Positions 94 to 59,328 of a stretch of DNA of 64,000 nt are shown piece after piece. A program made the position numbers and the translations under genes. This stretch comes from a virus, in the IMG/VR virus record IMGVR_UViG_3300020220_004906, positions 1-64,000 of that record, one strand, 5' to 3'. The number at the start of each line of letters is the position of its first letter. Position 1 is the stretch's first letter. The notes under the pieces are model-generated. The model saw nothing but the letters and a program-made list of their open reading frames with translations, searched no databases and was not told where the DNA came from.

Positions 94-662
94 AAAAAAA
101 CATATTCATTGTGTATGGACACTACAGCGATAAATCTTTTAATGCTGCCATTAGAGACACTTTCATAGCCACTGCCAAACAAAAAGGCCACAACATAGAC
201 TGCGTGGACCTCTACAAAGAAAACTTTGATCCAGTGTATCGTGGTGAAAGTCCTGATGCAGTCACTCTATCACATCGCGAAAGGATCATGAAAGCGGACA
301 CCATTGTGTTGATTGCACCCATTTGGAATTTTAGAATGCCAGCCATACTGGAAGGATGGATTGACAAAGTGTTGGCACCACCTTTTGCATTTAGATTCAA
401 GCGATTGGTGGGCAACTATGGTTATCCCATTGGAAACCTTGCGGACAAAAATGCTGTGATCTTCTGTACCTATGGATCACCCAGACTGGCCATCACCACT
501 TTCTTTCTCAACCTACCAATCAGAAGATTGAAGCGAGGTGTGTTTCATATCTGTGGCATCAGAGACATCAAATACAGAAGATACTTTGCCGTGCCGTTCG
601 TGACCCCGGAAGAGCGCGCAGGATTCCTGCAGGATGTCAGGGACACAGCGGAGAATCTGTGA
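90..662 (+). CDS. NAD(P)H-dependent oxidoreductase, flavodoxin-like fold (Flavodoxin_2 / MdaB-KefF type)
   Basis: Family motifs GH..SFN..I, DLY..NFDP, ADTIVL.APIWNF.MPAILEGWIDKV. Confidence 0.85.
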   Translation: MKKNIFIVYGHYSDKSFNAAIRDTFIATAKQKGHNIDCVDLYKENFDPVYRGESPDAVTLSHRERIMKADTIVLIAPIWNFRMPAILEGWIDKVLAPPFAFRFKRLVGNYGYPIGNLADKNAVIFCTYGSPRLAITTFFLNLPIRRLKRGVFHICGIRDIKYRRYFAVPFVTPEERAGFLQDVRDTAENL

Positions 663-678
663 GGCATTTCATGGCAAG

Positions 679-686
679 TATAAATA
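679..686 (+). promoter_or_regulatory. T4 late-type promoter TATAAATA upstream of the csp leader
   Basis: Exact TATAAATA in the intergenic region ~125 nt before the csp ATG. Confidence 0.55.
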
Positions 687-812
687 ACAGTGAGTAATAA
701 CAGTAAAGTAAGGCAAGTAGAGACAGTAACAACGGGCACACAGTGCCAATAGAGATTTTCCCCACCCAACATACGGTACACAATATCAACAATCAACAGA
801 AAGAGTGAAACA

Positions 813-1010
813 ATGACACAAGGAACAGTGAAATGGTTCAATGCCCAGAAGGGTTTTGGATTCATAGCCACAGAGGACCGTGACGTGTTCGTTCACATCA
901 CCGCGGTTCAGGCCTCTGGCCTGGAAGGCCTAAACGAGGGCGACGCAGTGATGTTCGACATGGAGGACACCGCCAAGGGTCCTGCCGCCATCAACCTCAC
1001 AGTGCAGTAA
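813..1010 (+). CDS. cspA: Cold-shock protein (CSD)
   Basis: GTVKWFN..KGFGFI (RNP1) and DVFVH (RNP2); 65 aa. Confidence 0.95.
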
Positions 1011-1020
1011 TCAGCACACA

Positions 1021-1041
1021 GCCCAGGGCTGGTCCCTGGGC
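1021..1041 (+). terminator. GC-rich hairpin after csp
   Basis: GCCCAGGG-CTGGT-CCCTGGGC inverted repeat just after the stop codon; no clear U-tract. Confidence 0.45.
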
Positions 1042-1067
1042 AACACAGCATACAATATTACCAAAGG

Positions 1068-1095
1068 TTGACACACAGCCACAGTGTGCTAAAAT
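1068..1095 (+). promoter_or_regulatory. Sigma70-type promoter
   Basis: TTGACA-16 nt-TAAAAT with extended TG, upstream of the 1121 ORF. Confidence 0.65.
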
Positions 1096-1120
1096 ATATC
1101 CATAAACAAAGGAGAACAAC

Positions 1121-1282
1121 ATGAGTAATTTGTTCACAATCAAGAATGGCATCATTGCCGCAGTGGTGATCCTAGCGGTCGTCATCGGCTACTACTTGCT
1201 GAAGCCCGCGCCCAAGGCGCCAGCTCCGGTCAAGCCAGCAGTGACAGCCCCGGCCACACCGGCGGCACCTGCCAAGAAGTAA
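1121..1282 (+). CDS. Small single-pass membrane protein with Pro/Ala-rich tail (53 aa; not in ORF track)
   Basis: MSNLFTIKNGIIAAVVILAVVIGYYLLKPAPKAPAPVKPAVTAPATPAAPAKK; AAGGAG RBS, promoter upstream, hairpin downstream. Confidence 0.8.
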   Translation: MSNLFTIKNGIIAAVVILAVVIGYYLLKPAPKAPAPVKPAVTAPATPAAPAKK

Positions 1283-1300
1283 TCACACACATACTGCAAC

Positions 1301-1324
1301 ATCACAGGGCATATGCCCTGTGAT
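1301..1324. terminator. Perfect 24-bp palindrome between convergent genes, likely terminator
   Basis: ATCACAGGGCAT|ATGCCCTGTGAT. Confidence 0.55.
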
Positions 1325-1342
1325 TGTTAGGCAATAAAAAGT

Positions 1343-1894
1343 TTAATCTAAATTTATATTTTGAGGCAAGCCATCTAGGCTCATTTGAACACTGATTCTG
1401 TCGCTGGTAAGATTCTCCACACTATGCAGTATGCGAGTATCAAGAATGGCCCAACTTCCTTCTTCTAGTCGCCTTGAATCCAATACCTTTAGTTTGCTGT
1501 AATCGCCCACACGTGAATGTGGATCTCTCATTATAGGATGTCCCTCTTCCTGCCAGTAGGTCAGGGTGGCGCCACCATCACGAACCAGATACTGCAGCAC
1601 ATACTTGCGTGTCTGATCGGTATGCACCCCCGCGGTGCCGGGATTGGCAGACCCGAACGCGTAGCGTATGCCAACATCACGGTACACCGAAGTGATGTTG
1701 TGCTTCAACCATGACTCTAGCTCGGGAGATGCCGTGCAGATGGGATTTCGCGCGGAAACCACAATCGTGCCATCTTCTCGCACATGAGTCCATCCAGGAT
1801 AATCTCTCAGTATGTCCGCGGGCCCATGGGCTAATATGGCATCAATAAAATGTTGGGGGATGGGAGATAGATTCAGCACTTTGAAATACCACAT
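1343..1894 (-). CDS. Putative cupin/2OG-Fe(II) oxygenase-like protein
   Basis: HxD (GVHTD) plus distal LHSV. Start moved to MWYFK at 1894, which follows a TAAATA box. Confidence 0.55.
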   Translation of the reverse strand: MWYFKVLNLSPIPQHFIDAILAHGPADILRDYPGWTHVREDGTIVVSARNPICTASPELESWLKHNITSVYRDVGIRYAFGSANPGTAGVHTDQTRKYVLQYLVRDGGATLTYWQEEGHPIMRDPHSRVGDYSKLKVLDSRRLEEGSWAILDTRILHSVENLTSDRISVQMSLDGLPQNINLD

Positions 1895-1996
1895 ATTAGA
1901 AATATTTATGGGGTGATAATATGCAAGCAACTTTTATTGAATTTTTTTTATTATAAGCAGTCATATTAAAATTATATCATATATCTTAAATATTTT

Positions 1997-2380
1997 ATGC
2001 CTAGAGTATTATATCAAAAAAAAAATTTAAGACAAAGCGTGGATAGTTGGTACAAAAAACGCAAGAAATGCTTTATGTATCACTATCATCTGGTCAATGG
2101 GGGCAAGTTGCCAGAGGATTGGATCAATCTCAATACCATATCTGGCTGCCGCTTCCATGGCTGGGTTCAGTTGGGGCACCTACATCGTGGCGAATTATGG
2201 AGTTATGCCACTGCTCGGCATCGTACCTTGATCACAATGCGAGTGCCAGCAAACAGATTGTTGTGGCCAGAACAGTACCGCAAGGTTTCGCGCAGCATGC
2301 TGCACCAGCAAAAACAGTGGAAGAATCAAATTGATCGTTTATGTAAAACCTATGGTGATAAATCTGATCTTTGGGTTTAA
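1997..2380 (+). CDS. Hypothetical basic protein
   Basis: 127 aa ORF with TAAATA 4 nt before the ATG. Confidence 0.55.
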   Translation: MPRVLYQKKNLRQSVDSWYKKRKKCFMYHYHLVNGGKLPEDWINLNTISGCRFHGWVQLGHLHRGELWSYATARHRTLITMRVPANRLLWPEQYRKVSRSMLHQQKQWKNQIDRLCKTYGDKSDLWV

Positions 2381-2384
2381 ATAA

Positions 2385-3173
2385 TTAAACCACTCTCAAT
2401 TCAATATTAAGCAGATCGGTAATCAGCATGCAGCCAGGCGAATGAGTAATACACAAACTGGGTTTGGCTTTTTGTATTACAACCTGAGGAGTAACGCCAC
2501 AGGCCCAAAACATTGGCACATGATCTAGAGGTAGTACATCAGGAGTTTCTCCCCAATTGGGTTGATATAAATTTTTAATTCCTATTTCCGCCGGATCACC
2601 TACATGCACAGGACCACCGTGTACCTTAGGAAATTTAGAAGTTATTCTCACTACCTCTTCCGCTCGATCTTTTGGAAAGGATCTCATGCTCACAACCATT
2701 GGTCCCCAAAAACGTCCAGCAGGCCGACACAGTTGATTTGTTATATACATAGGCACAATGGTACCTTGTTTGATATGAGGTAAATGAAATCCCGCTTCTA
2801 GTAAAGGCAATTCAAAACTTAGGCTACAGCCCAACACAAAAGCCACAAGATCAAGACTCCAATAAGAATCAATGTTTGTGGGTTCATCTACTAACTCACC
2901 GTGACGGAACACTCGATATTTGGGTACATCGGTACGTATATCTAATTCACCCAGAGTGCAATTCAAGAAAGGGTCACCCGGGGTGCTCATACCAATGAGT
3001 GGACAAGGTTTTGGATTACGCTGGCAGAAAGCAGCAAATTCTATAGCATATTCTGCAGGAAGTATAACCACATTACCTTGCACATGTTTACTGGCAGCAC
3101 CCGTGGTATACCCACAGTATTTGCCCGCTCTGATGATTTCTCTCGCCTCGCGAGAATCTTGAACATTCAACAT
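2385..3173 (-). CDS. DUF1445 / UPF0317 putative hydro-lyase (D-glutamate cyclase family)
   Basis: QGNVVILP, FCQRNPKPCPL, DIRTDVPKY, GCSLSFE, FWACGVTPQ, THSPGCMLITD. Start taken at MLNVQ (3173). Confidence 0.9.
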   Translation of the reverse strand: MLNVQDSREAREIIRAGKYCGYTTGAASKHVQGNVVILPAEYAIEFAAFCQRNPKPCPLIGMSTPGDPFLNCTLGELDIRTDVPKYRVFRHGELVDEPTNIDSYWSLDLVAFVLGCSLSFELPLLEAGFHLPHIKQGTIVPMYITNQLCRPAGRFWGPMVVSMRSFPKDRAEEVVRITSKFPKVHGGPVHVGDPAEIGIKNLYQPNWGETPDVLPLDHVPMFWACGVTPQVVIQKAKPSLCITHSPGCMLITDLLNIELRVV

Positions 3174-3194
3174 TATCCAATACTTATAGACACT

Positions 3195-3872
3195 ATGAAA
3201 AACTTTTTCCAATTTGACAGTGCCTGTGTAAATATTCATATGTTTGCAACATTCCAAGATGTGTGGAAAAAAGAAGAACTGTTGTGGTTTTACCAAGACA
3301 TGCAGAGGGCCAAATGTACTTTGGAGAAACAGAACAGCAGCGATCCCAACTATAAAAATCCTTCTTGTTTGCGATGGCTACATAAGAAAGGCACCGATGC
3401 CAGAAATCGATTAGAAGAAAAAATTTTAAAATTGTTGCCCGATCATGAAATGACCTTTGCAGCCTATGTAGAACAATATCAACCCAACATGTTACATTTT
3501 GACAGTGATGGCGGCCCATTTGGTGCCACTTGTATCATACCTCTTCTAGATTATAAAGGTGACACAGACCAAACACTGGTGTTTGATTATCTTTGCAAAG
3601 ACGGAGAAACCACAAAATCAACGTTGGAAAAGCTGTGCAAGGAAACAGAGCATGGTAGGCCTAAATTCAAGCACACACAGCAATATAAATTAGATCATTG
3701 CGGATACAATTCTATTATAAATGCCACAAAACTTTTGGGAGTGTTCTATTATAGACAAGGGGACATGGCAGTGTTTGACAAACGGTTATTACACTGCTCA
3801 AACAACTGGAATCTCACGGACCCTGTGAGGGAACACAAGGACTTTATCTTAATACACACACAAGCAAAATAG
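3195..3872 (+). CDS. Putative 2OG-Fe(II)/cupin oxygenase-like protein
   Basis: LHFD...TCIIPL...GDMAVFD..LLHCS. Start moved to MKNFF (3195), divergent from DUF1445. Confidence 0.55.
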   Translation: MKNFFQFDSACVNIHMFATFQDVWKKEELLWFYQDMQRAKCTLEKQNSSDPNYKNPSCLRWLHKKGTDARNRLEEKILKLLPDHEMTFAAYVEQYQPNMLHFDSDGGPFGATCIIPLLDYKGDTDQTLVFDYLCKDGETTKSTLEKLCKETEHGRPKFKHTQQYKLDHCGYNSIINATKLLGVFYYRQGDMAVFDKRLLHCSNNWNLTDPVREHKDFILIHTQAK

Positions 3873-4289: not shown

Positions 4290-5339
4290 ATGTCAAAACA
4301 AAAAATAAGATGGCTCATCACACATGAACCGCAAGATCTATTCATTAGAGCGGCACGTTGTTTCGAGCAAAAATTAGACGCGAAGTTACCTGGAAAATTT
4401 GAATTAGAACTTTACACTTCTGTGGACGATATGGTGGCGAAAAATGCTGACATGTTTTCAGCTGAAGAAAAAGAAGTTTTAAAAGACAGATCACCGGTAC
4501 TTAAAGGCCTAGAAAGCGACAATGAATCAGTTGAAGGAAAAGATTCAAACTTTAAATACAGAATAGCTAAATGGGCGAAAGTATTTGAAATCTTAAATGA
4601 TGGAAGAATACATATGTCACAAGCACAGGTTAACATCATTGGTGGTTACTTAGACAAAACCATTTCTGTGTTAGACATGCCTTTTTTATTCAAAGACCAC
4701 AACCATGTTACTAGAACGGTAGAAGGTGCTGTTGGAAAAATTATATCCAGCAAGGTTCACAATAAAACAGGTATCAAGCCACTTTGCTACACCTACTCTG
4801 GTGGATACAGAGTGATTGGTGCGACCCAAGATATTAAATCTTTGGAAGATCTAAGAAATCAACCACACTTCATCACCACAACAGGTGTGTCAAGTCATTT
4901 GTTCAGATATGCAGGTGCTGAAAAAGCCACAGGCACTTGGAGCTTGACAGACAGAGATGTTCAAGATATGAATGTCAACGGTGGAGCGATTGAAACAACT
5001 TTGATTAGATTTACTGGCAAGTATGTTTTCAAAACAAACCACAGCATGTTCATGACATCAATTCTTTGCGGTAAAACGTTTTGGAATTCTTTATCTGCAC
5101 AAGAAAAAGAACTATTCGTTCAAGCCGGCCTAGAAACTTCTAGACAAGAAAGAATCTGGTCATTAGAAGATGCAGCTAAAATCGAAGCAGAAGCAAAAGA
5201 AAAAGGATTGGTAATCAATACTATTTCTGATGTAGAAACTGCAGAGCTTAAGAAAGCGGCAGAAAAATGTTATCTGTCCGGTTTCTTAGATCGTCAAGGC
5301 ATTGATCATAAAATTGTTGGTCTTGCATTGAGATCATAA
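4290..5339 (+). CDS. TRAP substrate-binding protein (DctP family) homologue, no signal peptide
   Basis: LDMPFLFKDHNHV.R..EG.VG, YSGGYR, TNHSMF, FWNSLS..EK; AGGAG RBS. Confidence 0.85.
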   Translation: MSKQKIRWLITHEPQDLFIRAARCFEQKLDAKLPGKFELELYTSVDDMVAKNADMFSAEEKEVLKDRSPVLKGLESDNESVEGKDSNFKYRIAKWAKVFEILNDGRIHMSQAQVNIIGGYLDKTISVLDMPFLFKDHNHVTRTVEGAVGKIISSKVHNKTGIKPLCYTYSGGYRVIGATQDIKSLEDLRNQPHFITTTGVSSHLFRYAGAEKATGTWSLTDRDVQDMNVNGGAIETTLIRFTGKYVFKTNHSMFMTSILCGKTFWNSLSAQEKELFVQAGLETSRQERIWSLEDAAKIEAEAKEKGLVINTISDVETAELKKAAEKCYLSGFLDRQGIDHKIVGLALRS

Positions 5340-6291: not shown

Positions 6292-7554
6292 ATGAGTAAT
6301 TCAACGTCCGAAGGAGCACATCTTATAGAAAAAATAAGAGCACACAATAATTTCGACGCATCTGTGTATCTTAAAAAATTAAAAAATAATCAATGCATGT
6401 ATCTAACACAACTTGGGTCTGGACTATTCCACGAATGGGATATGTTATCAAAAGATGCGCAATATTATCTAATGATACCATATATATTAATTGGCACTCG
6501 AGATTTTAGACCACGCATAGGTAAATTTGAAGACCCGTGGAAATCCAAGGTACATCCATTGTATGCTGCACCACCTTTAAAATTTATAAAAGATTCACTA
6601 GCGGATATTGCAGACAATCGTGCAATCCAACTTATAAACAATGCCAAAAGTACTGGAAGAAATATTGCAGTGATGTGGAGTGGCGGCATCGACAGCACAG
6701 TTATGTTAACTTCCATCCTAAAGAACATAAGCGATTCAGATCAGGAACTACTCACGGTATTTTTAACCACCCACAGTATATCCGACAATCCAGATTTTTA
6801 TTTTAAATTTTTATCTTCTAATAAAAAAATTCAAATAAAAAATGCAGCAACATTAAGAGTGGACAACAGTTTTTTAGATAAAACTCTTTTATTAACAGGA
6901 GATCCCGGGGATGGTGTGTTTGGTCCATCTTCGTCCATGTACAGTTGGTTTTCCGAAAGTAAAAAACACTTAGAACCATGGCGCGATCACTTGAAGACAA
7001 TCATGCAACTTCTTGAACCCAACATAGAAAGAGATATGCTTGTACAACCGGGTATAGGTGAATGGTTTACTAATATCGTGACTCAAAATTTAGAGGAAAG
7101 CGGCTATGCTGATCATGTCAGCTCAGTGACCGATTGGTACTGGTGGACATATTTTAATTATAAATGGTCTTCCTTATGCTCTTATCCCCTACATAATAGT
7201 ATTATGGGAGAGCAACATAAAGGAATCACACACGATAATCATAAATTTTACGCTGAAAATATTTTTTATCATACTACACAATGGCAACTTTGGTCCTATT
7301 CAAATTTAAAAGAACTAGTTGGGCCGGATGTTTTTAAAACTCATAAGTTGAAGGCTAGAGAATATATCTATGAGTTTGATAAAAATTTTCAATATTTTTC
7401 TAGAAAAAGAAAAACATCAACCCCACCTCCCAACATGAAATTGCAAAAGTCATCGTTGATCGGGCATGACGAAAATTGGAAACCAATCTATTTAGACCAT
7501 TATCCAGATAGATATCTTATAACTCTTATTCTATCAAGATATAAAACGTCATGA
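6292..7554 (+). CDS. PP-loop ATPase (adenine nucleotide alpha-hydrolase; Asn-synthetase C-domain-like) 1
   Basis: IAVMWSGGIDST PP-loop and TGDPGD (cf. AsnB SGEGAD); no glutaminase domain. Confidence 0.75.
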   Translation: MSNSTSEGAHLIEKIRAHNNFDASVYLKKLKNNQCMYLTQLGSGLFHEWDMLSKDAQYYLMIPYILIGTRDFRPRIGKFEDPWKSKVHPLYAAPPLKFIKDSLADIADNRAIQLINNAKSTGRNIAVMWSGGIDSTVMLTSILKNISDSDQELLTVFLTTHSISDNPDFYFKFLSSNKKIQIKNAATLRVDNSFLDKTLLLTGDPGDGVFGPSSSMYSWFSESKKHLEPWRDHLKTIMQLLEPNIERDMLVQPGIGEWFTNIVTQNLEESGYADHVSSVTDWYWWTYFNYKWSSLCSYPLHNSIMGEQHKGITHDNHKFYAENIFYHTTQWQLWSYSNLKELVGPDVFKTHKLKAREYIYEFDKNFQYFSRKRKTSTPPPNMKLQKSSLIGHDENWKPIYLDHYPDRYLITLILSRYKTS

Positions 7555-7562
7555 AGTAAACC

Positions 7563-8741
7563 ATGAATCAACACCTAATAAATCTAAAAGATTCTCCTTG
7601 TATACCTTGCAATCGTTTAGCTATACTGAGGCCGTCTGAAAGATTCCCACACGCCAAATATTGGATAAGGACTCAACATCTATTAATGGGCGTAATAGAT
7701 TTAAGGGCTCGAGTGGGCACGTTTACAACGCCATGGGATATCGCCAGCAATTCTTTATATAAAATTCCAGAATTTAAAATTACTAACGATTCTCTAGAAG
7801 ATCTATTAGATGAAAGAGCATTAGAAATTTATTATTCTGCCAAAAGGACTAATAAAAAAATTGCTGTCATGTGGAGCGGGGGGATCGACAGCACCTCGGT
7901 GTTGACTGCGTTCCTAAAAAATGTTCCGATCGCTGACAAAAATATTATTACGGTGTTGTGCGATACTAATTCTATTTTAGAAAATATTGAATTTTATAAA
8001 AAATTTATTTCAAATAAATTAACATGCATACATTACAGGACCATTAACTTGACCGAGGAATTCTTACAAAGTTATATATTGCTACACGGAGATCCTGGGG
8101 ATTGTTTATTTGGTCCTAGCATTTCCAAATATCAATACTTCATAGATCGCGGGCTACATTTAGAGCCATGGAAAAACCATCTAGGTAAAATGAAAGAATT
8201 ATTAGAGATACCCCAAGTTGATCCCATGTCGTATGAACCAGGGTTTGGGGATTGGTATGTAAATAAAATTACGAATAATTTAGAGGAAACAAAGCAGTCA
8301 GCATATCTCACTTCAATTGCCGAGTGGTGGTTTTGGACCTATTACAACTTCAAATGGGAATTCAGTTGTCAGCGTCCATTTGCATATTTAAGGAGGGATT
8401 TCACAACTAAATTTAGCGACAATAGTATAAAAGAATTTGCTCAAAATACTTTTTTTAATACTGAAAAATTTCAACAGTGGGCATATTCAAACATTAAGAA
8501 AAATATACCCAAAGATTTTTCATTACACAAACAACAAGTCAAGATGTACATATACGAGTTTACAAAAAATTTAGATTATTTAAAATACAAATCTAAATTG
8601 CCAGCGAGGCCAGCAAATCTTGATTTGATGACATCGTCTCCCTTCCGACCGATCTATTATACAAAAAATTGGCAAGGCGTGTTAGATGATTCGCTTTCTA
8701 TTAAAACCCTGAAAATATTGTTAGAGAGGTACCAAGGATAA
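7563..8741 (+). CDS. PP-loop ATPase (Asn-synthetase C-domain-like) 2, paralogue of 6292-7554
   Basis: IAVMWSGGIDST, HGDPGDCLFGPS, HLEPW, T.NLEE and W.W.Y.N.KW shared with the previous gene. Confidence 0.75.
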   Translation: MNQHLINLKDSPCIPCNRLAILRPSERFPHAKYWIRTQHLLMGVIDLRARVGTFTTPWDIASNSLYKIPEFKITNDSLEDLLDERALEIYYSAKRTNKKIAVMWSGGIDSTSVLTAFLKNVPIADKNIITVLCDTNSILENIEFYKKFISNKLTCIHYRTINLTEEFLQSYILLHGDPGDCLFGPSISKYQYFIDRGLHLEPWKNHLGKMKELLEIPQVDPMSYEPGFGDWYVNKITNNLEETKQSAYLTSIAEWWFWTYYNFKWEFSCQRPFAYLRRDFTTKFSDNSIKEFAQNTFFNTEKFQQWAYSNIKKNIPKDFSLHKQQVKMYIYEFTKNLDYLKYKSKLPARPANLDLMTSSPFRPIYYTKNWQGVLDDSLSIKTLKILLERYQG

Positions 8742-9506: not shown

Positions 9507-9602
9507 GCCAAAATATCTAATATCCTTGGTAAAGTAGCATAAATACTTTTAACAAATTACCTTAATTTGTTATTTTAACGTTAAAAACAAAGGGAATAAA
9601 AA

Positions 9603-10079
9603 ATGACTAAAACTACTAAGATTAGATGGGTTATAGCACACGAGCCTTTATCTTTATTTGTGAGAGCAGCTAAAGATTTTCAAGACTATGTGAATCAAGC
9701 TCAGACTGCAGAAAAAATAGAAGTTGAAGTTATGACTCTAAGTGAGTACAGCGAGAGATACAACAACGGTGTTGTTGTAACTAAACACGATTTACTTGAC
9801 CTTATGGAACAAGGCAAAATTGAAATGTCGCAAATGTACACAACTTGGTTAGCTGAAAAATTTGATCAAGACATGTTAGCATTAGATATGCCTTTCATAT
9901 TCACAGATCATGATCATGCAACTAGAGTATTAGAAGGTGAAGTGGGACAGTTTTTATTAAACAAGATCACTGAAAAATCTAATGTAAGAGGCATGGCGTT
10001 CACCTACTCAGGTGGATTTAGAAACGTAATTTCTAGTAAAAAAGTTGATAAGTTATCAGACTTAACTACTAAACACTAA
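9603..10079 (+). CDS. DctP-family protein, N-terminal half
   Basis: KIRWVIAHEP, LDMPFIFTDHDHA.RVLEGEVG, YSGGFR..., ending at LSDL just before the conserved K-[IV]-R strand. Confidence 0.85.
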   Translation: MTKTTKIRWVIAHEPLSLFVRAAKDFQDYVNQAQTAEKIEVEVMTLSEYSERYNNGVVVTKHDLLDLMEQGKIEMSQMYTTWLAEKFDQDMLALDMPFIFTDHDHATRVLEGEVGQFLLNKITEKSNVRGMAFTYSGGFRNVISSKKVDKLSDLTTKH

Positions 10080-10100
10080 TTACTATCTTACCAAAATTAA

Positions 10101-10128
10101 AAGGGCGGCAGCGATGTCGCCCTTTTTT
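10101..10128 (+). terminator. Rho-independent terminator inside the split dctP
   Basis: AAGGGCGGCA-GCGA-TGTCGCCCTT followed by a T-run. Confidence 0.85.
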
Positions 10129-10160
10129 ATTCTACCTTATATACAAACTAAATATTTTTA

Positions 10161-10646
10161 ATGAAGGTACGAACAAATAGAAATCCAGTTGCCAAAGCAA
10201 CTTTCAAAGCACTAGGCGCCGAAGGACATGTTTCTGAAATTGAAGAAGTAAAAGGACTGATGGAAGATGGTACAGTAGAGGGCGGCGAGACTGTATATTC
10301 AAGAATTTATCCATTAGAACAAAATCAAGTCACAGAATCGGTAATTGACACACAACATAGTTTGTTCCTCACAAGTATGATCATGAGAAACGATTTCTAT
10401 GAAAAATTATCTCCAGAAGTTCAAGCAATAATAAAGGAAGCCGCTATTAAAGCCGGACGTAAAGAAAGAGAAACTACAATCATGGACGGAGAAGAAGCCA
10501 AAGAAAGATTAAAAGCCGAAGGAGTTGCGATTCATGAATTAACACCAGAAGAAAAAGAAGAATTTATTGAAAAAACCAAAGCGGTGTATGAAGAATTTAA
10601 AGACAAATTCACACCTGGATTGATTGAAAAAATTAAAAAGGCCTAA
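10161..10646 (+). CDS. DctP-family protein, C-terminal half, copy 1
   Basis: Starts MKVR (conserved Arg strand); FKALGA, TQHSLF, FYEKLSPEVQ.II.EAA, LKAEGV.I; own TAAATA box at 10149. Confidence 0.85.
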   Translation: MKVRTNRNPVAKATFKALGAEGHVSEIEEVKGLMEDGTVEGGETVYSRIYPLEQNQVTESVIDTQHSLFLTSMIMRNDFYEKLSPEVQAIIKEAAIKAGRKERETTIMDGEEAKERLKAEGVAIHELTPEEKEEFIEKTKAVYEEFKDKFTPGLIEKIKKA

Positions 10647-10649
10647 TAC

Positions 10650-11141
10650 ATGAAAGTTCGTACCAATAAAAATCCAGTTGCCAAAGCAACATTTAAAGCA
10701 CTAGGAGCCGACATAAATTCGCAAGTTATAGAAATAGAAGACCTTAAAGCAAAAATAGAGGCCAACGAGGTACAAGCAGGAGAAGGCATATATTCGAGAA
10801 TATATCCACTAGAGCAAAATCAAGTGCTTCGATCGGTATTGGATACACAGCACAGTCTATTCCTCACAAGCATGATCATGAGAAACGACTTCTACGAAAA
10901 ACTATCACCCGAGGTCAAGTCGGTGCTAAAAGAAGCCGCTATTAAAGCCGGACGTAAAGAAAGAGAAACTACCATACAAGATGGAGAAGAAGCCAAAGAA
11001 AGATTAAAAGCCGAAGGCGTGTCCATACATGAATTGACCCCAGAAGAAAAAGAAGAATTTATTGAAAAAACTAGAGTAGTATACGACACGTTCAAAGATT
11101 TTTTTACCCCCGGACTGATCGAAAAAATCAAAAAGTCTTAA
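10650..11141 (+). CDS. DctP-family protein, C-terminal half, copy 2
   Basis: Highly similar to 10161-10646; diverges mainly around residues 20-50. Confidence 0.85.
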   Translation: MKVRTNKNPVAKATFKALGADINSQVIEIEDLKAKIEANEVQAGEGIYSRIYPLEQNQVLRSVLDTQHSLFLTSMIMRNDFYEKLSPEVKSVLKEAAIKAGRKERETTIQDGEEAKERLKAEGVSIHELTPEEKEEFIEKTRVVYDTFKDFFTPGLIEKIKKS

Positions 11142-12457
11142 GCTGTTTCTTTTAAAACTTTTTTAAAACTATCCACTATCTTATCTATCTCTTTCTTTTC
11201 GATGATAAGAGGTGGGGCCAACGTTAACACATCACCCCCTGTTAATCTTACGTAACAATTTTGCTCATGAAACATTTTTCTGAACACGTCGTTGGCTCTA
11301 ACAAATGGTTTATCTGGCAAAGGGTCTAGTTCTATAGCCCCTAACATACCAATATTCCTGATATCTATAATATGTTTACTGCCTCGCAGTGAATGTAGAG
11401 CGTCTTCAAAATATTTTATTAATTCTTGATCTTTGTTAAACAAATTTTCCTTCTCATACAAGTTGATAGCAGCAAGAGCTGCAGCACAAGCAAGTGGGTG
11501 AGCGGAATAGGTATATCCGTGATAAAGCTCTATTGAATTTTTTTTTGCACTCATAAAAAGATTATAGATCTTATCATGTATAATTGTTGCTCCCATCGGA
11601 ACAGTTCCGCTAGTTAAGCCTTTAGCTATAGTCATCAAGTCGGGTTCGATATTAAAAAAATCTGCGGCAAAGGGTTTTCCTAATCTTCCAAAACCGGTGA
11701 TAACTTCATCAAATATTAAAAGTATTTCATTATCAGTGCAAATTTTTCTTAATTTTTCTAAATAACCCACCGGTGGAATTAAAACTCCGGCAGTCCCGGC
11801 GACCGGCTCAACAATAACTGCCGCGATATTACTTGCGCCATGTTTTTCAATTTGTTTTAACAAATCATCTGCTAGATGAGTGCCCCACTTAGGCTGCCCT
11901 TTAGAATACGCATTGTGCTCAAGATTATGTGTATGTGGAAGATGATAGACATCGGGTAAAAATCTTTCTGCCTGCATATTGATAAAAAGATTTCCCACAG
12001 TAGATCCTCCAAAATTGGTACCGTGGAATCCACGATTTCGTCCTATTATGATTTTTTTGTTTGTCTTGCCTTGCAGCTTGAAGTAAGATAAAGCAATTTT
12101 TAAAGCAGTTTCTACAGCTTCCGAACCGGAATTTGTAAAAAATATTTTATTTAAATTTTTTGGAGTAATAGAACTTAATTTCTCAGCCAGCCTAAATGCG
12201 CCAGGATGGCTCATTTGATATGAAGGTACAAAGTCCAATTTTGCTGCTTGATCTTGTATTGCTCTCACGATCTCGTCTCTGTTGTGCCCAGCATTGCAAC
12301 ACCATAGTCCTCCGTGGGCATCTAAAATTTTATCGTTGTAGATAGTAAAATAGTACATGTCTTTAGCTCTATCGATAATTCTAGGTCTGGGTAAGTTTTT
12401 AAAAATATTGTTAGGTGTAAATGGTAACCAAAGATGATCTAAATTTAAATTTTCCAT
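11138..12457 (-). CDS. Class III PLP aminotransferase (omega-amino acid--pyruvate type)
   Basis: GGLWCCNAGH, NSGSEAVETA, FHG, EPVAG, FDEVITGFGRLG, AKGLTSG (PLP Lys), HGYTYSAHP. Confidence 0.92.
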   Translation of the reverse strand: MENLNLDHLWLPFTPNNIFKNLPRPRIIDRAKDMYYFTIYNDKILDAHGGLWCCNAGHNRDEIVRAIQDQAAKLDFVPSYQMSHPGAFRLAEKLSSITPKNLNKIFFTNSGSEAVETALKIALSYFKLQGKTNKKIIIGRNRGFHGTNFGGSTVGNLFINMQAERFLPDVYHLPHTHNLEHNAYSKGQPKWGTHLADDLLKQIEKHGASNIAAVIVEPVAGTAGVLIPPVGYLEKLRKICTDNEILLIFDEVITGFGRLGKPFAADFFNIEPDLMTIAKGLTSGTVPMGATIIHDKIYNLFMSAKKNSIELYHGYTYSAHPLACAAALAAINLYEKENLFNKDQELIKYFEDALHSLRGSKHIIDIRNIGMLGAIELDPLPDKPFVRANDVFRKMFHEQNCYVRLTGGDVLTLAPPLIIEKKEIDKIVDSFKKVLKETA

Positions 12458-52955: not shown

Positions 52956-54551
52956 TTATGAACCTAGGTTGGCAAATATGGGCATCGGCGCAGTCCATTC
53001 TGTGGTTCTGTCGGTCCATCTTTCAAATATTTTAGGGTCGAATGTGGCCAATACCTGCATCATGCGGGTCATCAGCAAGCATGCACTTACCAAGTCATCA
53101 TGCTGGCCTGGCTTGCCTTTGTAGGACACGCCCGTGGCCACGAAGTCTTTTAATTCGGATATCAGTGGCTTGCTGTTGAGTTTCATCTTATTTAATTCTA
53201 CCAATTCCTTGAACTTGGCGCAGGCCGCTATCTTGTGTTTAGCGGTAGTGTTAAAACCTCTTCTGAACTTTCTTCGATGCCCTTTTCTGATAGGTTCGCT
53301 GATGAACTGTCCATGTATGTTCTCCTCACCAATGTCCATCACTCTTAAGAGTGCTGCTTCTCCCAACGTGTTATTTTCCATGCTGTAGAAAATGCTGGGT
53401 GTCGTGGTGGGGCTTTTTTCAATGATGGTGTCATAGATGTGCTTGGTGATTGCCTGTAATATTCTTACCTGTTGATTGGCCGGCGTGGTGTTATGATGCC
53501 ATTCCGCCACCTGCTCGAACGTGGGCAGCTCGAATACCTGAATCGCAGCGAAATCTCCACCGGTGCCCAGGCTGGGATCCAACGCCACCATGTAGGTGTT
53601 GCCCGGCGTTGGCGTCTTCCACCAACGCACCTGACCCATATTGATCAGGGGATCTCGTCCTTCCAGCTCTGCTAATCTAATACTGGAGATTAATGTTTCG
53701 TCAAAGATCAAGAACTCGCACTCGTGTTCTCTTCTGAATCTCTCCTCTCCGATTCTGCTTCTTTCCGTCTCAGCCCATTTCTCGTCTCTGTCAGGATGCT
53801 CGCTCCAGTGGGCCTTCATTGCGTAAAAACCATTGGTGCCCACGACCTTGTCAACGCCGTAGTCATCAAATCTCTTGCAGGCCTCTTTCCAGATCAATGC
53901 AAATTGATCTTCATCGGAGTTTGGGGTTGAAGTTATAAGGCACTTACCACCTGTGGACAATGTAGGAGATAATGATGTCCAAAACTCCTTGGCCTTTTCT
54001 GGCGGTTGCACGAAAGCGAACTCGTCGCAATAGATAAGAGACAAGGACATACCTCTGCCGGTGTTTTCTGTTGTGGTGGTGGCCATTATCTTGGAGCCGT
54101 TGTCAAACTCTATGGAGTTTCTATTGTATTGTGTTACTCCCGCCTTTATCCATGATGGCAATAGCTCGTAGGCATAGCGTACCCTGCTCATGATGTCCGA
54201 TGCACCTTGATACTTGTGAGCGGCTATTAGTATTTGTGAATCAGGTTTGAACATAGCATACCATAACAGATAGCCCGAAGCGCAGGTGGTCTTTCCGGTC
54301 TGTCTTGGCAGCATGGCTATGCTGAACCTGTGGTTGTTATAAGCTTCTACCAATCTCTCCTGGAACGGATAGGGATCAAATTTCAATTCTCCTCTTGTGG
54401 GGTGCTGTATTCGCATGAATTCCCGCATGAAGAAAAGCGGTCCACTTCTGAGATCCATGCACTTTTCCAGTCTTATCACTTGATCAGCTGTGTACTTGTG
54501 TTTTTTGTGTGCCTTTTTTATTTGGTCACTATCTAACGATATGTATGCCAT
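52956..54551 (-). CDS. terL: Terminase large subunit (T4 gp17-like)
   Basis: PRQTGKT, RG.S, DEFAFV, STPN; nuclease DPS.G.GGD, ENN, HDDLV. Confidence 0.95.
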   Translation of the reverse strand: MAYISLDSDQIKKAHKKHKYTADQVIRLEKCMDLRSGPLFFMREFMRIQHPTRGELKFDPYPFQERLVEAYNNHRFSIAMLPRQTGKTTCASGYLLWYAMFKPDSQILIAAHKYQGASDIMSRVRYAYELLPSWIKAGVTQYNRNSIEFDNGSKIMATTTTENTGRGMSLSLIYCDEFAFVQPPEKAKEFWTSLSPTLSTGGKCLITSTPNSDEDQFALIWKEACKRFDDYGVDKVVGTNGFYAMKAHWSEHPDRDEKWAETERSRIGEERFRREHECEFLIFDETLISSIRLAELEGRDPLINMGQVRWWKTPTPGNTYMVALDPSLGTGGDFAAIQVFELPTFEQVAEWHHNTTPANQQVRILQAITKHIYDTIIEKSPTTTPSIFYSMENNTLGEAALLRVMDIGEENIHGQFISEPIRKGHRRKFRRGFNTTAKHKIAACAKFKELVELNKMKLNSKPLISELKDFVATGVSYKGKPGQHDDLVSACLLMTRMMQVLATFDPKIFERWTDRTTEWTAPMPIFANLGS

Positions 54552-54556
54552 GGCTA

Positions 54557-54820
54557 TTATTTAAGTTTGAACCAATCTGTGGCGTTGGTATATGAAGTGG
54601 CACCAAAGCGGTCCATATGACCCACTTCCAGGCTGTGTATCACTGCTTCGATGTAGTCGTTCCAGTAGTCCACGAACTGCTTCATCCTAGGGTATCTGGG
54701 CGGCACGTCCAGGGTCTGCCACCAGAACTCCTGCAGTATGTTTTGATAGTCCGGCATCTTATAAACCACCTTGATGGAGGTGTATCTCAGCCCGTCAGAA
54801 TATCGTCCAAAGAATTCCAT
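54557..54820 (-). CDS. usg: Usg-family protein
   Basis: Y.MPD...LQ.F.WQ..D..P..P....F...W...IE...HS..V, matching the alphaproteobacterial Usg pattern. Confidence 0.75.
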   Translation of the reverse strand: MEFFGRYSDGLRYTSIKVVYKMPDYQNILQEFWWQTLDVPPRYPRMKQFVDYWNDYIEAVIHSLEVGHMDRFGATSYTNATDWFKLK

Positions 54821-54875
54821 AAAAATATTTAGTGGGGTCTATAATGGAATTAAACCTGGTGTTATTGGCCCCGGG

Positions 54876-57928: not shown

Positions 57929-59328
57929 TATAATCCTGCTCTTTCAGCGACGATGGCCACTTCGTTGCCCGCTCTACTGATCCTCACAAAGCCATCATTG
58001 ACCAATTTTGTTGTGTCGGTCAACGTTCTGCTTCTATATATTTTTTTGACGTCATTGGATGCTGCTGTATATTCTATCTCGCTTTGGCTGATAGTAAGAC
58101 CTTTTCTTGACCCGACCTGTTTGTAATAAATCCCTGCTGCCACTTTATCTTGTGCCACCAAATTGGTTTGAACGAGATTAAAAGATTCTGTTGGCGAGAG
58201 GTAAAGCCTAGTGTCTAATACCCTAGTTGGGATTACTTGGTTGTTAGGATTGCTTTGATCACCTAAACTCTTTGATCGTGCCAATGATGGGGCCGCGGCA
58301 AGACCTGCCACGGCCAGAGCGCCGATGGAAAAACTGCCCACAGGATTGGTTACTGTGCCAGCTTGACGGGCAATATCTATCACTCCCTCTTTCACTATGC
58401 CTTTCAATTCTTCTTTCACTGCTTGTTTGGCTTTGATCTTTTTGGCATTGTTGTAGGTGTTTATGGCTCCAAGCACCGCTCCTAGATAATTGCCCTCTCT
58501 TACGTTGCCTATCACAGATCCAATGCCATCCACGATTCCTCCCTGCCCAAATATAGATGTGGTGCCTCGTCCCAACACACTGAGAGGGGAAGGTTCTTTG
58601 TCATAATGCAAAGTTGCGAACCCCGGCACAGATACCGGATCAACCTTACCTGCTGTGTATATGACGGTCTCGTAAAACAATTGCATGGTGTTGGTCAACA
58701 ATCCTTGCCCATCTGTTTGATCAAGATTGTCATGGCTGAAAGATCCAATGATTGGATTGACCAGAGTGAATCCGCTGAAAGTTTTTTTATGCAACACAAA
58801 TATTTGCACTGATTTAAGGAATGGTTTACCTCTTTTTTGTGAATTGTCCATTCCGAACTGTGTGACCGTTTTTCTATTGGTGTCATGATACATATCATCT
58901 TTGGCAATGTCTACAATTTGTGTCCTGTTTATAGATTGTGAATCTGCGATGTTGTACTCGTAATAGGCCTTCCAAAAGGCATTCACGGTATCAGCATGAT
59001 CATCATGGAAAACTATGTTCACAGGATTATATTTTATTCTTGTGCCCACATAGACTTTTTTATTGTATTGCAATCTTTCTTCAAGATTCATGTCATACTT
59101 GGGCAATTCACATGACTTGACCAACATGTTGAGTTCCAAACGTTCATTTGTGCTGAACGGCCTCACAGGTATGGTATTATCGATATTGAACACCACATGG
59201 AATAGGAATTTTTGTTTGGGTAGTAATCTAAAATTGTCGTCTATATATAATCTACTGGCGTGTTGAAAATCCTTCAATCCAGGAAGACCGTTTGAGAAAC
59301 CTTTTAAGAAATTATTGATCTTTGGCAT
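57928..59328 (-). CDS. Tail-tube-like / baseplate tube initiator protein
   Basis: LVK..ELP, QYN, Y.PV.I.FHDD tube-fold pattern; start MPKIN after TATAAATA. Confidence 0.6.
   Translation of the reverse strand: MPKINNFLKGFSNGLPGLKDFQHASRLYIDDNFRLLPKQKFLFHVVFNIDNTIPVRPFSTNERLELNMLVKSCELPKYDMNLEERLQYNKKVYVGTRIKYNPVNIVFHDDHADTVNAFWKAYYEYNIADSQSINRTQIVDIAKDDMYHDTNRKTVTQFGMDNSQKRGKPFLKSVQIFVLHKKTFSGFTLVNPIIGSFSHDNLDQTDGQGLLTNTMQLFYETVIYTAGKVDPVSVPGFATLHYDKEPSPLSVLGRGTTSIFGQGGIVDGIGSVIGNVREGNYLGAVLGAINTYNNAKKIKAKQAVKEELKGIVKEGVIDIARQAGTVTNPVGSFSIGALAVAGLAAAPSLARSKSLGDQSNPNNQVIPTRVLDTRLYLSPTESFNLVQTNLVAQDKVAAGIYYKQVGSRKGLTISQSEIEYTAASNDVKKIYRSRTLTDTTKLVNDGFVRISRAGNEVAIVAERAGL

Follow-up and report, generated by a model that had tools for sequence, protein, structure and literature searches.

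The substrate-binding proteins of TRAP (tripartite ATP-independent periplasmic) transporters, such as SiaP, IseP and DctP, belong to a superfamily known from textbooks as the single-chain "Venus flytrap". A two-chain version has been made in the laboratory. The halves of an engineered split ribose-binding protein are inactive alone and show full binding as a heterodimer (Michel, Romero-Romero and Hocker 2023, PMC10601554). Natural splits of other proteins have been described in jumbo phages, which encode a two-piece minimal DNA polymerase III (Pol III) alpha and a split RNA polymerase beta/beta', with reassembly of the pieces presumed (Iyer et al. 2021, PMC7824862). Here we describe a phage locus in which a DctP-family gene is present in pieces, one front half (N) and two alternative back halves (C1 and C2). 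It is found in a stretch of 64,000 nucleotides (the window), which is part of the IMG/VR record IMGVR_UViG_3300020220_004906, a fragment of an uncultured jumbo myophage. The genes of the window include a T4-type large terminase, a tail sheath, a DnaB-like helicase, and reduced Pol III alpha (DnaE-like) genes. It is likely, in our judgment, that a DctP-family gene underwent fission in the ancestor of a phage clade, and that it has been kept since then as two separately translated chains that make up a working multi-piece protein.

The pieces share with SiaP, IseP and DctP their sequence family, the predicted two-lobe fold, and the signature arginine. Unlike these proteins, they are encoded by two (here three) genes, lack a signal peptide, are borne by a phage, and have no DctQ or DctM partner that could be found in the searches given below. 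Like the engineered ribose-binding protein, they are predicted to build a periplasmic-binding-protein fold from two chains. That protein is a laboratory construct, a type I ATP-binding cassette (ABC) binding protein with permuted lobes, whereas the phage genes represent a natural TRAP-type fission at the hinge crossover that is conserved and has alternative second chains. As with the split jumbo-phage enzymes, a single-chain cellular protein occurs as separate polypeptides, and the window has reduced DnaE-like genes of its own. The proteins in that overview are replication and transcription enzymes, with some of the pieces far apart, and no alternative halves are described; it makes no mention of DctP or of binding proteins (PMC7824862). 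A phage protein family, phrog_31178 (336 positions), is matched by N at 50-168 and by C1 at 171-330. Its profile is full length and the split form is not catalogued as such. The literature search found no natural split TRAP binding protein and no phage DctP-like genes, with the term "DctP" colliding with "dCTP" in full text. New here are the duplicated C-half with a variable segment that is protected from conversion, and the insert of a terminator and a gene start between the halves.

The three genes are on the plus strand and share one reading frame. The N-half gene (9603-10079) encodes 158 amino acids and ends in KLSDLTTKH. The C1 gene (10161-10646) and the C2 gene (10650-11141) encode 161 and 163 amino acids, and both products start with MKVRTN. 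The original prediction had placed the break at a conserved junction, with N ending in LSDLTTKH and both C-halves starting with MKVRT, and the open reading frames (ORFs) were found just there. Against the Pfam DctP profile (PF03480; gathering cut-off 23.4 bits), N matches positions 9-134 (E 1.8e-16, 60.7 bits), C1 matches 138-284 (E 2.6e-29, 102.9 bits), and C2 matches 138-283 (E 3.1e-23, 83.0 bits). N and C jointly span positions 9-284. Because this coverage is complementary, the pieces appear to add up to one complete TRAP-type solute-binding protein and a second copy of its back half. None of the halves contains an internal stop or frameshift. The family-invariant residues in the N-half are R8, W9, H13, E14, P15, H103, H105, and T134-G138, with R140 near-invariant. 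Family-invariant residues are distributed over both chains, and those that are invariant in intact relatives remain invariant in both halves. C1 and C2 are joined by TAA-TAC-ATG, with the C2 start 3 nt past the C1 stop. Translation of C2 is probably coupled to, or dependent on, that of C1.

Relatives of the locus were obtained by scanning viral contigs with the N-half, which gave 54 loci. The related contigs reach 316-357 kb, with an estimated completeness of 89-100%. A cut at the same residue is present in 25 of these loci (26 N-C pairs) in addition to the window, and in all of them the single polypeptide of the DctP family is replaced by separate ORFs with their own stop and start. The original prediction pointed to conservation of the split point, and this was borne out. 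All relatives with an N-half at least 76% identical are split, and about 27 more distant loci are intact. In trees from quick searches, which have moderate support, the split sequences and the window form one clade with a single state change (SH-like approximate likelihood ratio test [SH-aLRT] 89 for N and 80 for C). This clade is nested among intact relatives in both trees, which points to a fission that occurred once and was then inherited. All split C-halves open with ATG, or in two cases GTG, and continue with K-[IVL]-R-[TA]-N. Among 19 intact genes that were inspected, the same position is occupied by T, E, V, L, A, Q or K (by T, E, V, L or A in the sampled members of the sister clades), the exception being three more distant paralogues with M. 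Since the intact genes mostly read a residue other than M there, the start codon of the C-half is a derived and conserved feature.

The junctions between N and C take five forms. The two genes overlap by 4 nt (ATGA) or by 17-23 nt in the +1 frame, or they are joined by an in-frame TAA-TAA-ATG (seen in locus L006), by a spacer of 18-19 nt that contains TAAATA, or by the long spacer of the window (81 nt) and locus L005 (82 nt). The relatives' junctions use frames 0, +1 and -1 and the stop codons TAA and TGA. Because the frames and stops differ, a shared recoding route and an assembly artefact are ruled out. L005 comes from a different metagenome and has the identical layout of N, 82-nt gap, C1, and C2, with a compensatory change in the hairpin of the gap, so that the misassembly considered in the original prediction is excluded for the window as well. 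In the window, as in each of the 26 related pairs, the N and C genes are neighbours. In most relatives they overlap or abut, which suggests translational coupling.

Both halves are under purifying selection. The ratio of non-synonymous to synonymous change (dN/dS, or omega) was calculated pairwise by the Nei-Gojobori method (NG86), and medians were taken. For the N-half, the median omega is 0.081 in the split clade versus 0.096 in intact relatives, and for the C-half it is 0.108 versus 0.222, values that are approximate given that dS is near saturation in many pairs. These are not near 1. The claim of the original prediction that the split is not decay is thus upheld by its conservation in one clade, by an omega of about 0.1 in both halves, and by the derived start codon of the C-half.

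Relatives the size of the N-half fall into at least 207 clusters in a set of 5.8 billion proteins, on contigs of up to ~360 kb. Their annotation, if there is any, is simply TRAP binding protein. A DNA search of deposited phage genomes gave 0 matches, and a protein search of deposited phages gave a single weak match that is unrelated. Because neither search gave anything related, it appears that no cultured phage has the family.

Structure models were made with AlphaFold2 (AF2). For N and C1, the TAA codons of the gap were read as Gly, which gave a single chain with a 27-residue linker, and an alignment of 26 relatives was used. The model has a predicted local distance difference test score (pLDDT) of 89.8 and a predicted template modelling score (pTM) of 0.86. 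The residues of N have a pLDDT of ~88-97 and the linker alone falls below 50. In Foldseek, the N+C1 model has target-normalised template modelling (TM) scores of 0.84-0.88 to solved TRAP binding proteins. In the window C1 lies in frame between N and C2, and the N+C2 model was therefore made on L005, where the out-of-frame C1 becomes a nonsense linker of 192 residues. The ordered parts of this model have a pLDDT of ~82-98, and it matches IseP with a TM score of 0.88 over both halves. N+C1 and N+C2 are each predicted to form a complete two-lobe type II TRAP binding-protein fold that includes both hinge strands and the long helix at the C-terminus. These models indicate compatibility and not binding, because the intact homologues in the alignments favour docking of the halves.

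The cut is just past the long first hinge strand and, in the alignment with IseP and SiaP, three residues ahead of the signature Arg of the family. R4 of C1 and C2 (MKVR) aligns with LKVR of IseP and, by the alignment offset, with Arg-147 of SiaP. It is kept in all C-halves of the split clade. Arg-147 is the carboxylate-binding Arg of SiaP and is found in ~97% of the TRAP binding-protein family (PMC4646407). The ancestral fission would thus have cut the gene just past the first inter-lobe crossover. Lobe I would come mostly from the N chain, together with the first hinge strand, and the C chain would contribute lobe II, the return strand, the long C-terminal helix, and the signature Arg. The binding cleft would be composite, built by both chains, because family-invariant residues lie in both of them; the AF2 models are consistent with this. 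From the models we infer that N pairs physically with both C1 and C2.

It is unlikely that the halves are functional without reassembling, as independent single-lobe proteins, where a C-half might, for instance, oligomerise or bind ligand by itself. Purifying selection does not by itself show association, a terminator is present between N and C in the window so that the two may be expressed at different times, and C-halves can duplicate without N. Against this, the N and C genes are adjacent throughout the clade and mostly overlap or abut, which suggests coupling. The residues that are invariant in intact relatives are also kept in both halves. In the models the C-half consists of parts of both lobes and the return strand of the hinge, and would not be a self-contained lobe. 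The engineered ribose-binding protein may serve as an analogy here, since its halves did not bind when isolated and had to form the heterodimer to recover binding (PMC10601554).

A reassembled split protein does not appear to be part of a transporter. The N chain has no signal peptide. Its first beta-strand begins at residue 4, the maximum hydropathy of its N-terminus is low, and an in-frame stop is found immediately or closely upstream of the N ATG (directly preceding it in several relatives). Because a stop precedes the ATG and N opens with the first beta-strand, there is no room for a signal peptide. DctM and DctQ were not found in the 75-kb record. DctM was also not found in five relatives of 220-357 kb, three of which are at least 90% complete; DctQ was not searched for in these. 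The export signal and the DctQ/DctM partner that are usual for the DctP family are thus missing from these sequences. With no signal peptide and no DctQ or DctM found, the split DctP protein is most likely cytoplasmic and docking to a transporter is unlikely. Use of a host DctQ/DctM would require export. The original prediction had placed the divergence between C1 and C2 partly on a docking surface, and this argument does not hold for the same reasons. With neither a signal peptide nor a phage-encoded membrane partner, the protein would most likely bind a small anionic metabolite in the cytoplasm of the infected cell.

C1 and C2 are 79% identical in amino acids and 77% in nucleotides, with an NG86 dN/dS of 0.085. 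Third positions account for 71 of the 113 base differences. Codons 20-52 hold 22.3 of the 45.9 non-synonymous differences, and the proportion of non-synonymous differences (pN) is 0.31 there versus 0.085 downstream. The original prediction had described the changes as mostly third-position and the amino-acid divergence as concentrated at residues ~20-50, and both descriptions are accurate. The variable segment is at 10218-10310 (+, codons 20-50) in C1 and at 10707-10805 (+, codons 20-52) in C2, where it has a 2-amino-acid insertion relative to C1. Throughout the split clade, too, no other stretch of the C-half varies as much. The SiaP ligand contacts F170 and N187 may map to this segment, an assignment that the literature consulted did not confirm and that is not used as evidence.

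Most C-halves of the split clade have a pair of cysteines (V-C-E-I/T-E and G-x-C-D/E-G/A-G) that may form a structural or metal site. In a comparison with loci L006-L027, the two are mostly present or absent together in the sampled relatives. Both are replaced in the window and L005, by S and V in C1 and by I and V in C2 (window regions 10161-10310 and 10650-10805).

Comparison of the window with L005 indicates that the two copies are old and that both are maintained. Between these orthologues, omega is 0.055 for C1 and 0.072 for C2, with a dS of ~1. When the four C genes are compared, the informative sites in codons 1-52 follow orthology 23:1, and in codons 91-163 they group the copies within a genome 15:0, as in concerted evolution (Fisher p = 6e-10). 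In L005 (4560-5539), the DNA of C1 and C2 is 100% identical over several 45-nt windows in the 3' two-thirds and 56-67% identical in the variable segment. The identical windows indicate recent gene conversion. From the mosaic pattern of sites it follows that gene conversion homogenises the 3' two-thirds of the genes, and that the 5' third keeps two old versions. From the window to L005, each copy has hardly changed in its variable segment. Two protected variants would be the pattern that selection for two different versions would produce.

The lineage of the window would thus have added a tandem second C-half, with both copies under purifying selection, and the 30-residue variable segments that stay distinct under gene conversion would give two functionally different C chains for one N. 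The statement of the original prediction that both C-halves are retained agrees with this. We infer that C1 and C2 have different specificities. It is possible, although we regard it as doubtful, that a constant N chain and interchangeable C chains make binders of different specificity in the infected cell, with the segments kept apart by selection, and that they serve a pathway run by the phage and not transport. Within such a pathway they may capture or sequester an organic anion or a signalling molecule, or hand over a substrate to the phage-only PP-loop enzymes encoded nearby.

One might also suppose that only one C-half is a true partner of N and that the other acts as a regulator, competes for N, or is a redundant recent copy that is being lost. 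A single C-half suffices in most relatives, the gene-start motif described below is found only at C1, and C2 probably depends on C1. This is improbable given that both copies are conserved between the window and L005 with the low omega values above, that R4 and the other invariant residues are kept in C1 and C2, and that each variable segment is nearly unchanged despite gene conversion elsewhere. In addition, C1 and C2 are modelled equally well with N.

Duplicated C-halves are also present in a second lineage, where L016 has N-C-C and L019 has N-C-N-C. Quick trees had suggested an exchange of C-halves between lineages (C1 of L016 and C1 of L019). This was withdrawn, as trees constrained to native placement outscored the quick search and the approximately unbiased (AU) test gave p 0.70 and 0.73. 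The original prediction called the halves swappable. In the sense of exchange between phage lineages this is not sustained, since the AU tests gave no grounds for rejecting native duplication.

The window/L005 lineage alone has the long spacer between N and C1 (10080-10160, +), which is 81 nt in the window and includes TAA three times in frame. It contains a hairpin resembling an intrinsic terminator with a T-run (10099-10131, +). The stem is 12 bp with a 4-nt GCGA loop (stem-loop 10099-10126), the folding free energy is -18.9 kcal/mol (z = -4.5), and not one of 200 shuffled sequences folds equally well. L005 keeps the hairpin, with a G-C pair of the stem replaced by A-T through a compensatory change. 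After it comes TAAATA (10149-10154, +), followed by 6 nt (to 10160) and the ATG of C1 at 10161, without a Shine-Dalgarno sequence. The strong terminator in the 81-nt gap and the TAAATA box 6 nt ahead of C1 had both been noticed in the original prediction, and both are confirmed.

TAAATA-N4-10-ATG occurs at ~17 gene starts in the window versus 0.33 expected (P ~3e-20). The terminase and several structural-module genes are among them. Examples are the starts at 54551 (terL), 52945, 54820, 56574, 57106, and 59328 on the minus strand, and at 1997, 5380, 14921, 17483, 44499, and 63243 on the plus strand. By eye, the listed starts have no Shine-Dalgarno sequence, and clear ones are found before other genes. 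A 14-nt stretch at the C1 start recurs unchanged where the 54820 gene starts (54820-54833), and a hairpin followed by TAAATA is also found ahead of the gene that starts at 59328. The motif resembles the T4 late promoter, TATAAATA. It looks like a late-type promoter that would give nearly leaderless mRNAs. Since TAAATA recurs at ~17 starts and the combination of hairpin and motif is also found before 59328, the spacer is an ordinary intergenic control region of the phage, placed inside a formerly continuous gene.

T4-type phages have mobile terminator-promoter cassettes, the PeSLs reportedly described by Arbiol et al. in 2010, in which a stem-loop terminator and then a promoter occur as similar repeated copies between genes. 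A hairpin with TAAATA is found here and before 59328, and the window has no second copy of the whole spacer. The 81-nt spacer was also considered as a repeated mobile cassette, which was rejected as only the 14-nt gene-start motif recurs in the window.

The region upstream of N (9540-9602, +) was read from its sequence, an inverted repeat, and the motif table. It has TAAATA at 9540-9545, 63 nt before the ATG, a perfect 10-bp hairpin at 9550-9572, and a Shine-Dalgarno-like AAGGGA at 9590-9595. The window lineage would have added an 81-nt insert with an intrinsic terminator and a TAAATA gene-start motif, by which C1-C2 would become a separate transcription unit, probably late and leaderless, and N would keep its leader with a Shine-Dalgarno sequence. 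Independent expression of the halves, as proposed in the original prediction, is in keeping with the C1 gene-start signal behind a terminator in the window and L005. It is not general, as the genes overlap or abut in most relatives, and having N and C expressed separately would be peculiar to the window/L005 lineage.

Several points weigh against the reading of a conserved split binding protein that works in the cytoplasm. The record of the window is only a 75-kb fragment. The association of the N and C chains comes from models, and the intact homologues in the AF2 alignments bias the halves towards docking. The saturation of dS noted above makes omega approximate. The promoter reading of TAAATA comes from position and recurrence, and the motif could be a translation signal instead. 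In addition, no characterised precedent was found for a cytoplasmic role of a protein with the DctP fold.

Two other explanations fare much worse. Taken from one genome alone, stops within a family domain resemble disruption, and there is an intact paralogue 5 kb upstream, so that the locus could be taken for a decaying DctP pseudogene broken by an insertion and a partial duplication. This is refuted, with very little probability left to it, by an omega of ~0.1 for each half in a clade whose dS is saturated, by the inherited split and the derived start codon in every member, and by halves free of internal stops and frameshifts. In phage T4 gene 60, ribosomes bypass a gap that contains a hairpin, and the hairpin in the gap here and the common frame of N and C1 in the window bring such bypass, stop read-through, or frameshifting to mind; a full-length chain made by recoding is hardly credible, as the gap contains a terminator as well as TAA three times in frame and lacks matching take-off and landing codons in frame, the relatives differ in frame (0, +1 or -1) and in stop codon (TAA or TGA) so that no single mechanism fits, and the start codon is conserved in every split member.

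A natural two-chain version of the Venus flytrap that has persisted over a long evolutionary span mirrors the ribose-binding protein that was split in the laboratory. It offers a ready system to study how a hinge-bending fold tolerates a broken backbone. If one N and two C chains with protected segments do work together, they would be a compact way to diversify ligand recognition and a template for modular biosensors. The locus also points to an abundant cytoplasmic DctP-like protein, with hundreds of variants on jumbo-phage contigs of up to ~360 kb and no transporter partner. Databases currently label these phage DctP-like proteins simply as a transporter subunit.

Outside the split set, the window possesses an intact DctP-like paralogue of 349 amino acids (4290-5339, +) with 30% identity to the N-half. 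It has no signal peptide and no equivalent of Arg-147. It reads DLRNQPHFITT, with QPHFITT opposite the MKVRTN of the split copy, and it has an insertion of ~35 residues past the second strand. Distant paralogues in L012 and L050 likewise lack the Arg (MKFATA and MKFTTG). In some relatives, TctC-family (Bug-like) genes with classical signal peptides adjoin DctP-like genes without signals (L020:2959-3873, L031:2958-3857, and L012:5027-5935). Because the TctC-like genes have signal peptides, these phages carry both exported and non-exported binding proteins.

DctP-like genes of relatives, split and intact, can be preceded by a conserved leader of ~90 nt, with the pattern GACGC..GGGTA..ACCCTTTTAC..GAACGCC..CCGTAG..GCAAGC. 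It has two hairpins, with compensatory changes in 10 of 12 predicted pairs. The leader is present in ~15 of the 22 relatives that were aligned, for example in L007:3880-3975, L012:3874-3975, L028:3895-3985, and L031:3895-3985. The window, L005, and the L006 group do not have it, and another upstream region is common to these three.

Upstream of the split DctP genes, the window has two paralogous genes for PP-loop (SGGIDS) ATPases (6292-8741), which are phage-only. The pair is conserved in L005 (680-3120) and in L006 and L009-L011 (~540-3870), more distant versions are found near L052 and L058, and it is absent at most other related loci. On the other side, a class III aminotransferase gene (11138-12457, minus strand) converges on C2, and the stop codons of the two overlap (CTTAAG). 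This gene is absent from the same place in L005, where C2 is followed directly by ClpP and a radical SAM gene. It represents an indel between close relatives.

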